From an uncultured Acidobacteriota bacterium (GTDB lineage Bacteria > Actinomycetota > Acidimicrobiia > Spongiisociales > ZC4RG35), in NCBI GenBank assembly GCA_963711895.1, contig CAVQFU010000002.1, positions 20,021-84,020 of the forward strand: a stretch of DNA of 64,000 nucleotides, read 5' to 3'. Positions 28,478 to 32,150 of the stretch are shown one piece after another (within the stretch, counting starts at the first letter, position 1; the number at the start of each line of letters is the position of its first letter). The notes below the pieces were generated by a model. It saw only the letters and a program-made list of their open reading frames with translations, searched no databases and was not told the DNA's origin. The translations under genes and the position numbers were made by a program.

Positions 28478-28516
28478 GCGCTCCCGGCAGGATTCGAACC
28501 TGCGCACCCGGCTCCG
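28478..28516 (-). repeat. att site: 39-bp duplication of the tRNA-Arg 3' half
   Basis: Identical to 32078-32116 (gcgctcccggcaggattcgaacctgcgcacccggctccg). Confidence 0.92.
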
Positions 28517-28839
28517 CAGAGAGGTCACGGTCAGTCGCTTTCAGAATCAGCAAAACCCCTGGTCAGAGCGATTTCTGGTGGCTCTATGGTTTGTCTCGAC
28601 CGGGTGCGCTTGGTTTTCGGGATGCCTGGCCTCACAAATGCGCGGGATGATTCGAGAAGGCCACAACCGGTTTAGGAAAGTTCCAACACCCCTTAACTCG
28701 CAATCTTCTGATCGAAGAGCCTCGGCTGCAAACCCTGCGCCTGGTCGCCGATAATTGGAAGTAGAAGAACCTGACTCTCGGGACCCGAACGCGAAGAGCG
28801 GTGACCCATGGATGAATGGAGCGCGGTTAAGAAGTCAAC

Positions 28840-29104
28840 CGTCGCCTACACATACGAAGTGCGGGATTGGGTTCCGAAGGAACGGCTGGTGATGAGCACT
28901 GCCGATGGGCCCTTTTCTATGGAAACCACCTATGAGTGGCATGACTCTCCATCAGGCGGCACGACCATGGCCTCCGCAACCGCGGGACCCCGGCCGGCTT
29001 CTCCAACGTCGCCGCGCCGATGATGGTCGGTGCCATGCGTCGCGCCAACCGAAAGGACCTGGTGCGGCTAAAGGCGATCCTCGAGGCGCCGGACACCGCT
29101 TGAT
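28840..29104 (+). pseudogene. SRPBCC-family remnant
   Basis: YTYEV...LVMSTADGPFSMETTYEW, then after a frameshift LRNRGTPAGFS...AMRRANRKDLVRLKAILE. The N-terminus is missing. Confidence 0.6.
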
Positions 29105-29269
29105 GAGGATGGCCAATACGCGCCTCAGGCTTCGAATGGGACCGGCATCAACTCGAACAGGTCAATTGCGTAGCTGCCGAGACCCCGCTGAGAAGGTGTG
29201 GTCCTGAGGCCGGCGACCTTGGAGGCAGGGCGAGCACCTAGCATCTCCTCCCCGGGGAAGGAACCGGAT

Positions 29270-29809
29270 ATCAGGAACAGCCTCAGGCTCGGGGCAGCCG
29301 CCCTCGCCTTCGTCCTCGCCGGATGTGGGACACCCACCACGACGGTCAGCGACCCGCCCACTATGTCTCCCACCGCGCCGGCGACCGAGACGGAACCGGG
29401 CCCTTTCGACTTCACCGCCCAGACTCTCGAAGGGGAGACCATCGAGGGCGAGTCTCTCAAATACCACGATGTAGTGCTCTGGTTCTGGGCGCCTTGGTGC
29501 CCGATATGCCTGGTCGAGGGCAAGGACCAGGTGGCTCCGGCGTTGGCAGAGCTGCCCGATGGGGTCCAATTCGTGGGAATCGCCGGGCGCTCCGACGACC
29601 TGGCGTCGATGGACGAGTTCGTCGAATGGACCGGCACCGGCGGGGTGACCCACATCTTGGATCTCGACGGGTCGATCTGGGAGGGCTTCGGAGTGCTGTT
29701 GCAGCCGGCGTTCTATTTCGTGAACCATGACGGCACGGCACGCAAGGCGGGCTCGGGTCTCACCACTGCCGATCTCGTGGCCGAGTTCGAGGTCCTCACC
29801 AAAAGCTGA
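29270..29809 (+). CDS. TlpA/redoxin-family lipoprotein
   Basis: Lipobox LAGC, FTAQTLEG, FWAPWCPIC, cis-Pro QP. Start is ambiguous (ATC 29270 or GTG 29198). Confidence 0.85.
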   Translation: MRNSLRLGAAALAFVLAGCGTPTTTVSDPPTMSPTAPATETEPGPFDFTAQTLEGETIEGESLKYHDVVLWFWAPWCPICLVEGKDQVAPALAELPDGVQFVGIAGRSDDLASMDEFVEWTGTGGVTHILDLDGSIWEGFGVLLQPAFYFVNHDGTARKAGSGLTTADLVAEFEVLTKS

Positions 29810-29818
29810 TCCCGTCGG

Positions 29819-30739
29819 CTATTTCCGGTGGGGCATTCCGTCCTCGACGGCATCGACAGTCTCGGGTGACAGAGCCCCAGAATCGCCACTCCCCCGCCGG
29901 TAGACCCAGATCGCCAACCCGGCCACGGCCATCATCACTGCCACCAACAGCGGTGTCCCCCACGACCCGATCGCACCGGTCACAGCCGACTGCCAGCGGG
30001 CCGTTGTCAACAAGACCGGGTTGAGCACCTCGATGCCATGACGGGGCAGGATCTCGGCGAGCCCGAACACCACCACATAGAGCCCGGCGAGGATCATCAA
30101 CGCCCCACCCACCCTCATGATCAGGCCGGTGTTGCTACGCAGCGCCGCTATGACCCCAGAGCCAGCCACCACCGCCAGCAGGGTCACCGCCAACACTGAC
30201 GCCCCCATGCCGACCCCGTAGATGACGAAGGGGAGCACCACCCCCAGCGGGTTGGTAGCCACCAGCGCCTGGGAGACCACGGCCAGGAACAGGCCGATGG
30301 TGCAGCTCAACGAAGCCACAGCGAAACCCGCTCCGTAACCCACCTGAGACCAGAAGGTTGCCCGTGGCGCCGACAACTGCATGCGCAGGCCCGGCCCCCA
30401 AGGCTCGCCCCGGACCACGACCATCACACCCAGCCCGACGAGCAACAGGCCGATGGCCACGGTGACATAGGACACGTAGGGGAGGATCGAGCCCTGGAGG
30501 CTCAGGCTGACCGCGCCAAACAGCAACCCGAGCCCGGTGAACACCACCAGGAAACCCAGGGTCATGGAGAGGGCGAACCCGACGCCTCGTCGCAGCGCCA
30601 CCGGGCGGGCCACCGCCGAATCCGCGCTGCTAGTCACGATCAAGGTGACATAGGCGGGCAACAGGGCGAAACCGCAGGGATTGAATGCGGCCACCGCGCC
30701 TAGAAGCAGGGCATAGGAGGCGGCAGAGGCATCGAGCAT
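29819..30739 (-). CDS. ccdA: CcdA/DsbD-type membrane electron transporter
   Basis: FNPCGFALLPAY and ASLSCTIG Cys motifs, multiple TM helices. Confidence 0.88.
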   Translation of the reverse strand: MLDASAASYALLLGAVAAFNPCGFALLPAYVTLIVTSSADSAVARPVALRRGVGFALSMTLGFLVVFTGLGLLFGAVSLSLQGSILPYVSYVTVAIGLLLVGLGVMVVVRGEPWGPGLRMQLSAPRATFWSQVGYGAGFAVASLSCTIGLFLAVVSQALVATNPLGVVLPFVIYGVGMGASVLAVTLLAVVAGSGVIAALRSNTGLIMRVGGALMILAGLYVVVFGLAEILPRHGIEVLNPVLLTTARWQSAVTGAIGSWGTPLLVAVMMAVAGLAIWVYRRGSGDSGALSPETVDAVEDGMPHRK

Positions 30740-31036
30740 GGCGGGTTCTTCGGGAATCGCAGAGCCTAGGGCATAGGCAGGCTCATCCCTCGGTGTTGAG
30801 CCGGCCCCAACCGGCTAGTGCCGCGCACGCCCATTCCTGTCTAGGTGCCGTTCATTTGGCGCCGTTGATTTCGTCCGACCTGCAACGTGACCAGCTCGTC
30901 AGCCAGATTCGCAAGCGAACCGTCGTGGGGACCAGCACCGAGCAAGATCCGTCCATGGTCAAGGTGGCGCGCCACGTCGTAACAGACTGAGTCGAGAACA
31001 CTATGTTCGCCACCAAATTCGTGAGTGGGAGGAGCA

Positions 31037-31762
31037 ATGAGCTCACCGATCGATCCGGAAGGCAGCGAGGTCACCGTTATCCACGAGTTGGTGGATTTCT
31101 CGGGTGCTGATGTGCTCGAGGTGGGGTGCGGGGATGGGCGTCTGACCTGGCGGTACGCCGAGGAGGCGGCCACGGTGCTCGCCATGGACATGAACGCCGA
31201 GAAGATCGAGCGAGCCAGGGAGGCTACTCCTGCTTCGCTCCGCGCCAAGACGAGTTTTGTGGTGGCGGATATCGGCCAGGTGGAGCTTTCCCCGGACGCC
31301 TACGACGTGGCCATCCTCGCCCACTCTTTGTGATGCATTGAACTGGAGGGCGTGGTCCACGCCCTGAGGCGGATCCATCACTCACTTCGATCGGAGGGGG
31401 TCCTTCTCGACCTTCATCCCCAGCCGGAGCGGGCTGGAGTGGAGGTGTGGCAGGGTGGCCGGGTCGAACCTCTCGGCCACCTCGACCAGGAGGAGGATAT
31501 ACAGGACATCCTCGAGGCTCGGGCCCGACTCGACTCAGTCGAAGGGGACGGCTGGTACGTGACGGAGCGCCGAAGGTTCTTCGACCTGCTCGCTCACTTC
31601 CAGAGTGCAGAGGACTGGCTTGAGTACCAGGCTCGAGAGGGATACAGCGGCGAGGCTCCGGCGGAGTTAATCGCCTCGGCCAGTCGGTTGCTGGCTAGCG
31701 GAGGCGGTGAGTTTGTAGTCCGAGAGCCCATCCGGGTTTCGGTGCTCAGACGCCTTCCTTGA
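31037..31762 (+). CDS. class I SAM-dependent methyltransferase with in-frame TGA (predicted Sec99-Cys100)
   Basis: VLEVGCGDG motif I. YDVAILAHSL-TGA-C-IELEGVVHALRRIHHSLRSEGVLL continues the fold in the same frame, and a SECIS-like hairpin follows. Confidence 0.8.
31347..31365 (+). promoter_or_regulatory. putative bacterial SECIS element
   Basis: agggcgtg-gtc-cacgccct perfect stem with GGUC apex about 20 nt after the TGA. Confidence 0.7.
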
Positions 31763-32078
31763 CCTGGAGGCCATAAGGACGCCCCCCGGGTCTGGAGCTT
31801 CGTCAACTAGTACATCGAAGAAACTGAGAAGAACCTGACTCGGGTATTCGTCTTCGTTGAACACGGAATGGCAGGTCTCGTATTTGACGAAAGCGACGAC
31901 CTCTTTGCCACCGGACGCAATTAGAGGGCTTCGCGAGTCGTCGAGCGCTCTCAGGATTTCCATAGGTGCCCATGGTTCGTCACGCACCCACTTTGCCATC
32001 CAGAAACCGGGTGCACAGCCAGTCTCTCTAAGTTCATTTGACAATGAACGACCTGAAACCCCTGGTCAGAGAGTTGCG

Positions 32079-32150
<72 letters not shown>

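Follow-up and report, generated by a model that had tools for sequence, protein, structure and literature searches.

The window analysed here is the whole stretch of 64,000 nucleotides (nt) taken from contig CAVQFU010000002.1 of an uncultured bacterium of the class Acidimicrobiia, and the element in question is a gene for a class I S-adenosylmethionine (SAM)-dependent methyltransferase, located at positions 31037-31762 and interrupted by an in-frame TGA codon. A first-pass annotation had read this gene as an unannotated selenoprotein methyltransferase with a vicinal selenocysteine (Sec)-Cys motif and a selenocysteine insertion sequence (SECIS) element similar to that of fdhF, and the comparative sequence evidence presented below lends support to this proposal. 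The features of the gene itself are the following.

31037-31762, plus strand: class I SAM-dependent methyltransferase gene, 241 codons and the stop codon TGA at 31760-31762 (read-through frame, Pfam, orthologs)
31027-31034, plus strand: Shine-Dalgarno-like GGGAGGAG, 2 nt 5' of the ATG at 31037 (read from the sequence)
31331-31333, plus strand: in-frame TGA, predicted Sec, residue 99 and first of the pair; of 80 genome loci, 72 have TGA here and 8 have Cys (6 CU, 2 CC, where U stands for Sec)
31334-31336, plus strand: TGC, Cys100, second of the pair; TGA at this codon in 50 of 80 related loci
31347-31365, plus strand: SECIS-like hairpin with an 8-bp stem and the apical GTC at 31355-31357 (minimum-free-energy fold, covariation, RNAalifold)

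One frame and one family around the TGA

The open reading frames (ORFs) 31025-31333 and 31352-31762 lie in a common frame, the gap between them being made of the TGA at 31331-31333 and of six sense codons, TGC ATT GAA CTG GAG GGC. The ATG at 31037 is the likely start, with which the N-termini of the homologs line up, and reading through the TGA gives a product of 241 amino acids that ends at the TGA at 31760-31762. The Pfam model Methyltransf_25 (PF13649) matches residues 26-121 of this product with 56.6 bits (cut-off 27), across the TGA at residue 99, and PF08241 matches the read-through protein with 51.3 bits (cut-off 21.2); Methyltransf_25, _11, _12 and _31 all score above their cut-offs and cover residues 22-124, the TGA included. 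Motif I is present as VLEVGCGDG. In the family alignment, E28, G30, D33, G34 and R35 are invariant, and Cys100 is almost invariant when U is counted as C. The single frame split by a TGA, the 241 residues and the methyltransferase domain described in the first-pass annotation are thus borne out, both by the sequence and by the Pfam match that spans the TGA. In comparison with nine orthologs, the ratio of non-synonymous to synonymous substitution rates (dN/dS) amounts to 0.12-0.30 over codons 1-98 and to 0.12-0.29 over codons 101-241, reflecting purifying selection on either side of the internal UGA, as in a SECIS-dependent selenoprotein gene. Since TGA is the normal and commonest stop of the long ORFs in the genome to which the window belongs (460 of 630), and terminates the methyltransferase gene as well, the genetic code is not reassigned in this organism.

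Scanning the prokaryotic species, each represented by one genome, yielded 195 confirmed relatives of the window protein, and the states of the pair were taken from the best 80 of these 195, which span at least eight phyla. The window gene belongs to a family in which the pair is Sec-Sec, Sec-Cys, Cys-Sec or Cys-Cys: among these 80 loci, 44 are UU, 28 UC, 6 CU and 2 CC, so that one or both codons are TGA in 78 of them, the first position being nearly always Sec and the second Sec or Cys. The holders of TGA forms are found in the Acidimicrobiia, the Gaiellaceae and other Actinomycetota, several classes of Chloroflexota, the Acidobacteriota, Gemmatimonadota, Binatota, Thermodesulfobacteriota and Armatimonadota, and both CC loci come from Thermoplasmatota archaea. 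In a metagenome scan, the pair was included in 24 of 29 loci, with 23 UC and one UU. TGA is confined to the pair in all 47 full-length genes, and the state of the pair switches at least 14 times on a tree of 81 rows. Tandem Sec-Sec, present in most relatives, is an unusual feature of this family.

Closer to the window organism, the family occurs in 7 of 60 relatives, and every ortholog in their genomes (G030, G022, G036 with two copies, G024, G012, G006 and G039) has the internal TGA; the orthologs sharing this TGA are 60-91% identical to the window protein. No member was found at E <= 1e-40 in 200 other genomes drawn evenly from the class, showing that the family is patchy and no lineage trait. 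The one UU member within the Acidimicrobiia clade (L023/L075, genomes G039/G073) comes from an unpublished genome; such genomes (G019, G027, G028, G039, G050, G062, G073, G079, G092 and G094) are also within the tallies of selA, tRNA-Sec and selD given below, and carry no conclusion alone. In some genomes, two diverged copies, each with its own TGA, are observed (L019 and a second copy at C28 in G036; L065/L077; L069/L072), with for example 73% and 62% identity to the window protein.

This distribution bears on the simplest alternative, namely that the TGA arose by a nonsense mutation or by an error of sequencing, the gene being a pseudogene or an artefact. A lone in-frame stop in one draft genome is indeed the usual signature of such events, but TGA stands at the pair in 78 of the 80 genome loci and in 24 of 24 metagenome loci, and dN/dS downstream of it equals that upstream. 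Furthermore, public soil contigs covering the codon, from two DNA runs and from one RNA library (31276-31454; this contig may hold DNA and is not evidence of transcription), have no other letter at 31331-31333 among the 40 differences listed, 61 further ones lying outside this listing; they derive from relatives at 85-99% likeness and none spans the whole stretch. The TGC or TGG in reads that would have contradicted the first-pass annotation was accordingly not seen among those 40 differences, and a mutation or an error has hardly any credit left as an explanation.

The same codon has consequences for the protein databases. A full search with a profile hidden Markov model against 1.84 billion representatives gave 146 proteins at E <= 1e-30, and classification of the best 150 representatives shows that 91 stop exactly at the pair, 19 start just past it, 36 are full length and 4 are other fragments. 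The full-length ones comprise 25 CC, one AC, one YC and one WW, 8 being left unresolved by the pattern; the rare full-length forms AC, YC and RC retain the second Cys only. Cys is therefore aligned to the UGA both in the loci (2 CC and 6 CU of 80) and in 25 of 36 full-length representatives. In the same line, a word-indexed protein search with the window protein returned 111 hits, distributed into 11 full-length proteins, 89 covering 50-59% of the query and 11 fragments covering 23-41%. Six inspected among the 89 half-length hits are C-terminal halves starting just past the pair, three inspected short fragments are N-terminal pieces ending in ...SL, and four inspected full-length proteins have SLCC at the site; the C-terminal halves are named 'hypothetical protein' in NCBI records. 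The first-pass annotation had anticipated homologs with TGA or Cys at this column, database proteins cut at ..SL, and a gene hidden by gene calling: both kinds of homolog exist among the 80 loci and the database proteins, many records end exactly there, and 110 of the best 150 representatives are halves. The DNA of the closest Cys-Cys protein, P0002, was not recovered from the metagenome collection, in which all 24 informative loci are TGA forms. One full-length database protein, P0117, has WW at the pair (SWSLWWIP...) and is probably a TGA-TGA member that the gene caller translated under a code in which TGA is Trp.

As gene callers output two genes here and in many public records, a split methyltransferase could also be imagined, with an N-terminal half ending at the TGA and a C-terminal half, encoded by a separate gene, starting from the GTG at 31352. 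Such an arrangement is nevertheless hard to reconcile with halves that are always in one frame, without any variation of spacing in an alignment of 79 rows, with a second pair codon that is also TGA in 50 of the 80 loci, with the existence of uninterrupted Cys-Cys forms, and with a single Pfam domain that spans the junction, while the listed starts of the C-terminal halves vary between records; its probability is considered to be negligible.

The downstream hairpin and the proposed recoding

Downstream of the TGA, AGGGCGTG (31347-31354) pairs perfectly with CACGCCCT (31358-31365), and the GGTC is located at +24 to +27 counting from the T of the TGA. In fdhF of Escherichia coli K-12, checked directly, GGTC is at +22 to +25 from the T of the TGA; the perfect stem and the two spacings reported by the first-pass annotation are hence confirmed from the sequences.

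The hairpin was then considered at the level of the family, in a gapless alignment of 66 nt from the pair which contains 79 sequences, that is, the window and 78 TGA-bearing loci, the two CC loci being excluded. In the helix formed by columns 17-24 and 28-35, 93.5% of the cells are paired, compared to 25-55% after shifting the 3' partners by 1-3 columns, and the covariation score was reached by none of 500 shuffles. Changes on both sides occur in six of the eight helix pairs. For instance, columns 22-30 are A-U in 42 sequences and G-C in 35, and columns 20-32 are G-C in 71 and A-U in 6, with no unpaired case in either; the switch in columns 22-30 ties the replacement of Val by Met in one arm to a synonymous change of the His codon, CAC to CAT, in the other. 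Independently, RNAalifold recovers the same helix as family consensus, with 7 bp and a 5-nt loop, the second base of which is an invariant G (column 25) and the third a U in at least 90% of the sequences (column 26). A hairpin with an apical G-U shortly 3' of the UGA, maintained by compensatory changes, is thus present, and the SECIS covariation test suggested by the first-pass annotation turns out positive, with a concordant RNAalifold helix. In addition, G[MV]VHAL, the peptide that the hairpin region encodes, is frequent in Sec forms (54 of 78) and nearly absent from Cys-Cys forms (1 of 32), which indicates that the constraint acts on the RNA and not on the protein.

The invariant G-U of the loop lies at +25/+26 from the first UGA and at +22/+23 from the second, so that the +23/+24 of fdhF falls between the two, and this bracketed spacing may be how one hairpin serves both codons. 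Elements of the same kind exist in the lineage itself: a formate-dehydrogenase-like gene with one in-frame TGA was found in all five relatives checked (G003, G030, G024, G036 and G012), and in two of them (L179 of G036 and L181 of G012) the site ...CNRT-U-HAPS... precedes a GC-rich hairpin that has its GGUC at +22 to +25, meaning that the SelB of this lineage meets the same kind of element. As in fdhF, the type case of SelB- and SECIS-dependent decoding, the window gene thus combines an in-frame UGA, a GC-rich hairpin within the coding region, an apical G-U, Cys homologs, and selA, selB and selD in the lineage. It differs from fdhF by belonging to another protein family, by the two adjacent UGA codons on one hairpin that characterize most members, and by the fact that neither a bulged U nor a conserved lower helix was found in the family.

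Taken together, these data make it very probable that positions 31037-31762 are one gene encoding a cytoplasmic class I SAM methyltransferase of about 27 kDa, with the UGA of codon 99 recoded to Sec through the bacterial SelB pathway. In the proposed mechanism, the hairpin, located 16 nt 3' of the UGA, would present its G-U apical loop at approximately the spacing of fdhF and of the formate-dehydrogenase-like gene of the lineage, and would recruit SelB with Sec-tRNA(Sec), leading to the insertion of Sec in place of termination. The product would carry a vicinal Sec99-Cys100 pair just past strand beta-4, where RebM-type methyltransferases have His-His, and the most likely roles of this pair would be to hold a soft chalcogen or metalloid substrate, or to act as a nucleophile beside the methyl group of SAM.

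The UGA could also be read through without Sec, a near-cognate or suppressor tRNA inserting Cys, Trp or Arg and the hairpin only stimulating the event, and the presence of Cys at this column in TGA-free homologs would fit with such a model. Nevertheless, the TGA forms co-occur with selA, which scores above cut-off in 71 of 76 TGA-form genomes across phyla (of the other five, two contain selA fragments and three no selA); for the Sec pathway, a presence in about a fifth of bacteria is quoted (PMC10418091). By comparison, selA is above cut-off in neither of the two archaeal CC holders. The loop and the spacing of the hairpin are, moreover, those of SelB-dependent elements of E. coli and of the lineage, and TGA is otherwise the main stop codon of the genome, making a readthrough devoid of Sec very unlikely.

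Selenocysteine machinery and the tRNA-Arg islet

Several observations weigh against a selenoprotein that is decoded in the window organism. Considered as a single sequence of 76 nt, the hairpin region folds no better than its shuffles (z -0.95; 28 of 200 shuffles equal it), and the case for the hairpin consequently rests on the family comparison; in addition, 31250-31480 has no match to a SECIS family of Rfam at E up to 10. Many of the loci compared are closely related, and their counts are not independent. In the organism's own assembly, selA and selB were not found, nor was a tRNA-Sec, the best match being a tRNA-Ser, nor a Sec-type formate dehydrogenase (FdhA). A crude screen of the own genome for UGA-plus-hairpin junctions, which 110 junctions passed with the methyltransferase among the longest perfect stems, gave no other convincing selenoprotein gene, although the absence of others is not shown thereby; five other junctions chosen for Cys-adjacent motifs matched no Pfam family. 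Finally, the gene came on an insertion, and could therefore be an import into a host unable to read it.

The features of this insertion are listed hereafter.

28520-32077, no strand: inserted islet of 3.56 kb with the methyltransferase gene, absent from the relative G003
28478-28519, no strand: direct repeat of 42 nt, 39 of them exact, copied from one end of the tRNA-Arg; left border of the islet
32078-32150, minus strand: tRNA-Arg (CCG), right border of the islet, where synteny resumes (ARAGORN)
30999-31812, plus strand: the only DNA stretch common to the window and the relatives' copies, comprising the gene and short flanks (blastn)
29198-29809, plus strand: ResA/TlpA-like redoxin in the islet, lipoprotein-like, with a CxxC motif
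29819-30739, minus strand: membrane protein of 306 amino acids in the islet, without Pfam or NCBIfam match

Positions 28478-28516 are 100% identical to 32078-32116. The homology of the relatives to the window, which runs through rho and thrC up to the tRNA-Arg (CCG), begins at about 32075-32078, and in G003 (L143) this tRNA directly abuts the homolog of window position 28519, down to 26958, with the islet site empty, from which it follows that 28520-32077 is an insertion. The tRNA-derived direct repeat and the empty site in a relative, which are the marks of a tRNA-integrated genomic island, give substance to the mobile islet proposed in the first-pass annotation. Like other islands associated with tRNA genes, the islet abuts on the tRNA, has a repeat derived from the tRNA end, and lies at a site that is empty in a relative; it is unlike them in that its four ORFs, scanned against Pfam and NCBIfam, gave the redoxin as the only match and no recognised integrase or recombinase, and in that its GC content does not stand out from that of the flanking DNA.

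What the sequences compared show directly is the signature of recoding, the existence of the family and the insertion. The gene might be a genuine selenoprotein gene in its donors that is unreadable here, having been imported with the islet into a host without selA, selB and selC in which translation would stop at codon 99. The genes missing from the own assembly, the location of the gene on an insertion that a close relative does not have, and the lack of any other recognised selenoprotein gene in that assembly would all be in agreement with this scenario, as would the loss of the Sec trait in four congeners. Indeed, the four congeners without selA (G001, G002, G017 and G028) also lack a selD match above cut-off and have best tRNA-Sec scores at the level of tRNA-Ser; since selA, selD and tRNA-Sec are jointly missing and two of these genomes are 95% and 99% complete, the whole trait seems to be lost in part of the genus. 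None of the four holds the methyltransferase.

However, the own assembly (2.09 Mb in 8 contigs) is 76.7% complete and about 1 Mb below its congeners. The close relative G003 has selA, selD and tRNA-Sec, and the 20-kb neighbourhoods of its selAB and tRNA-Sec are, as wholes, essentially unmatched in the own assembly, which argues for an assembly gap rather than a selective deletion of these genes. Moreover, and unlike the four Sec-less congeners, the own assembly has an intact selD of the Cys type (392 bits), and it yielded no selU, the other gene that commonly depends on selD. The methyltransferase gene itself is intact, and its identity to the copies carried by selA- and selB-containing genomes is 89-91%. 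An unreadable import is for these reasons improbable. By the pattern of selD in the genus, the window organism would group with the Sec users and, even with selD as the only component found in its assembly, would presumably still decode codon 99 as Sec.

More broadly, selA is above cut-off in 54 of 61 relatives, tRNA-Sec matches of 59.7-81.9 bits (anticodons not checked) are present in 52 of 61, and selB adjoins selA in all five genomes checked, four of which hold the methyltransferase. Concerning the search for selA, selB, selC and selD recommended by the first-pass annotation, the machinery is therefore there in the lineage, and the own assembly shows selD alone. The accompanying description of a lineage with few known selenoproteins finds no support as far as the machinery is concerned, given these 54 selA-bearing relatives and the TGA-containing formate-dehydrogenase-like gene in the five relatives examined for it. 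In G006/G072 (L022, L074), selA is split into fragments scoring 219 and 196 bits, and the methyltransferase is broken, residues 2-160 and 160-239 being in different frames; either both genes decayed once the Sec trait had been lost, or the assembly contains indel errors.

As for the content of the islet, blastn of the ortholog loci against the window matches 30999-31812 for L017 and 30999-31762 for L062, and the redoxin and the membrane protein do not adjoin the methyltransferase in the other 80 loci. A 38-nt tRNA-Arg-like fragment lies 3' of the gene in L017, and a similar fragment about 2.1 kb upstream in L062; no full tRNA gene was found in these two loci. The same tRNA-Arg carries other cargo in the genus, namely 6.3 kb in G020 (L166) and 16.6 kb with four partial tRNA repeats in G008 (L167), the latter suggesting serial insertions. 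L168 of G006 is also listed for this insertion hot spot at tRNA-Arg (CCG), and the first 110-180 nt or so inside the left border are common to the islands at this tRNA.

Relation to known methyltransferases and possible chemistry

With respect to catalogued selenoproteins, Table 1 of a 2026 review of prokaryotic selenoproteomes contains 119 families and subfamilies, among which the methyltransferases are ArsM, the methylated-DNA-protein-cysteine methyltransferase, MduS, the UXPK-star fusion and two ArsM fusions (PMC13188914). The window family is absent from this table of 119 families, and no methyltransferase in it has an adjacent UU or UC motif (PMC13188914); the word 'methyltransferase' is also absent from the main texts of BSepDB and deep-Sep, supplementary lists aside. 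This selenoprotein family is found in no catalogue searched, and its gene is routinely cut in two by gene callers. It occurs in mostly uncultured lineages of soil and groundwater (Acidimicrobiia, Gaiellales, Chloroflexota, Acidobacteriota and others), and the halving of 110 of the best 150 representatives implies that the selenoproteomes of these phyla are undercounted. An adjacent Sec-Sec centre of this kind was likewise not found in the 119-family table or among the papers listed by literature searches. In this context, two adjacent UGA codons on one hairpin make it possible to test directly how much variation in spacing SelB-dependent recoding tolerates, and the Sec/Cys switches, at least 14 in number, provide a natural series (UU, UC, CU, CC) to evaluate the contribution of selenium to an active site.

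All NCBIfam 20.0 models stay below their cut-offs, both for the window protein and for a UU member. The best match is CpaM (NF043040), with 45.6-77.6 bits against a cut-off of 180, and the family is hence not assigned to it; no corrinoid gene stands beside the archaeal member, and the literature search found no paper pairing 'CpaM' with 'corrinoid'. Against MduS (NF045649), the window protein scores 33.8 bits and the UU member 31.1 bits, far below the cut-off of 380, and against the methyltransferase/UXPK-star model (NF047649) the window family scores 19-31 bits (cut-off 460). Like the window family, both MduS and the UXPK-star protein are of the Methyltransf_25 type, and each has two Sec predicted by comparative genomics; however, the MduS model has 338 positions and a CxxU motif, whereas the window family has about 240 amino acids and adjacent residues. 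Membership in ArsM was also considered and dismissed, the scores being 17.3 to 27.8 bits for ArsM_DUF2284_UU (cut-off 575) and 38 bits for ArsM_AhpD_UU (cut-off 510). ArsM is a class I SAM methyltransferase with Sec variants, entered as experimentally verified in the review table (PMC13188914), but its motif is UxxG according to this review (PMC13188914), unlike the adjacent pair of the window family, and no ars genes recur beside the window family.

Neither do the neighbouring genes help: an all-against-all clustering of 1813 ORFs from the 80 loci revealed no partner gene, the best non-self cluster being present in 10 of 80 loci, and this absence of a conserved neighbour leaves no operon-based clue to the function. 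A profile search of solved structures retrieved generic class I methyltransferases only, with the RebM-type small-molecule O-methyltransferases 3bus (E 9e-13) and 5gm1 (E 2e-13) among the best, and a natural Cys-Cys homolog, P0003, fell into generic class I methyltransferase clusters only in the protein atlas. In these alignments, the Sec-Cys pair corresponds to the HH of 'SLHHM' in RebM (3bus) and to the CH of 'SLCHM' in 5gm1, the likeness to RebM-type enzymes being limited to the SAM-binding core (profile positions 15-129). The histidines of RebM-type enzymes are catalytic and stand at the acceptor side of the methyl group of SAM, and ArsM grips its metalloid substrate through Cys residues near the beta-4 loop. 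From its position, the pair would be a catalytic or substrate-binding centre.

Adjacent chalcogen residues are further known to form a selenenylsulfide in an eight-membered ring or to bind soft metals, as in mammalian thioredoxin reductase and in mercury-handling proteins. The 2026 review table also places a number of bacterial 'CU' selenoproteins in mercury and organometallic contexts (PMC13188914). In the case of thioredoxin reductase (GCUG) and of the Cys pairs of mercury proteins, the residues are C-terminal or in other folds, whereas the pair of the window family is internal, in the active-site loop of a methyltransferase, with Sec-Sec as its commonest state. Analogy with these systems suggests that the vicinal selenol/thiol pair may bind a soft chalcogen or metalloid, in the manner of the ArsM cysteines, or may work as an attacking-and-resolving pair, in the manner of thioredoxin reductase.

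A bolder and tentative idea, which is possible but to which rather little probability is attached, concerns the TGA-TGA majority form. One hairpin would direct the insertion of two adjacent Sec, and the resulting vicinal diselenol/diselenide at the methyl-acceptor side would act directly on a soft substrate (a species of Se, Te, As, Sb or Hg) or accept the methyl group itself, the whole being a single-gene cassette that spreads between phyla, here on a tRNA-Arg islet. If it is true that the pair binds or methylates chalcogens or metalloids, this would have a bearing on the volatilisation and detoxification of Se, Te and As in soils.

Regarding the immediate surroundings of the gene, a promoter scan around it found none, and one weak terminator-like site at 31833-31845 is within chance expectation. 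On the minus strand, the 3' end of the methyltransferase gene is overlapped by a 125-codon ORF (31670-32044) that matches no family and is perhaps not a real gene.

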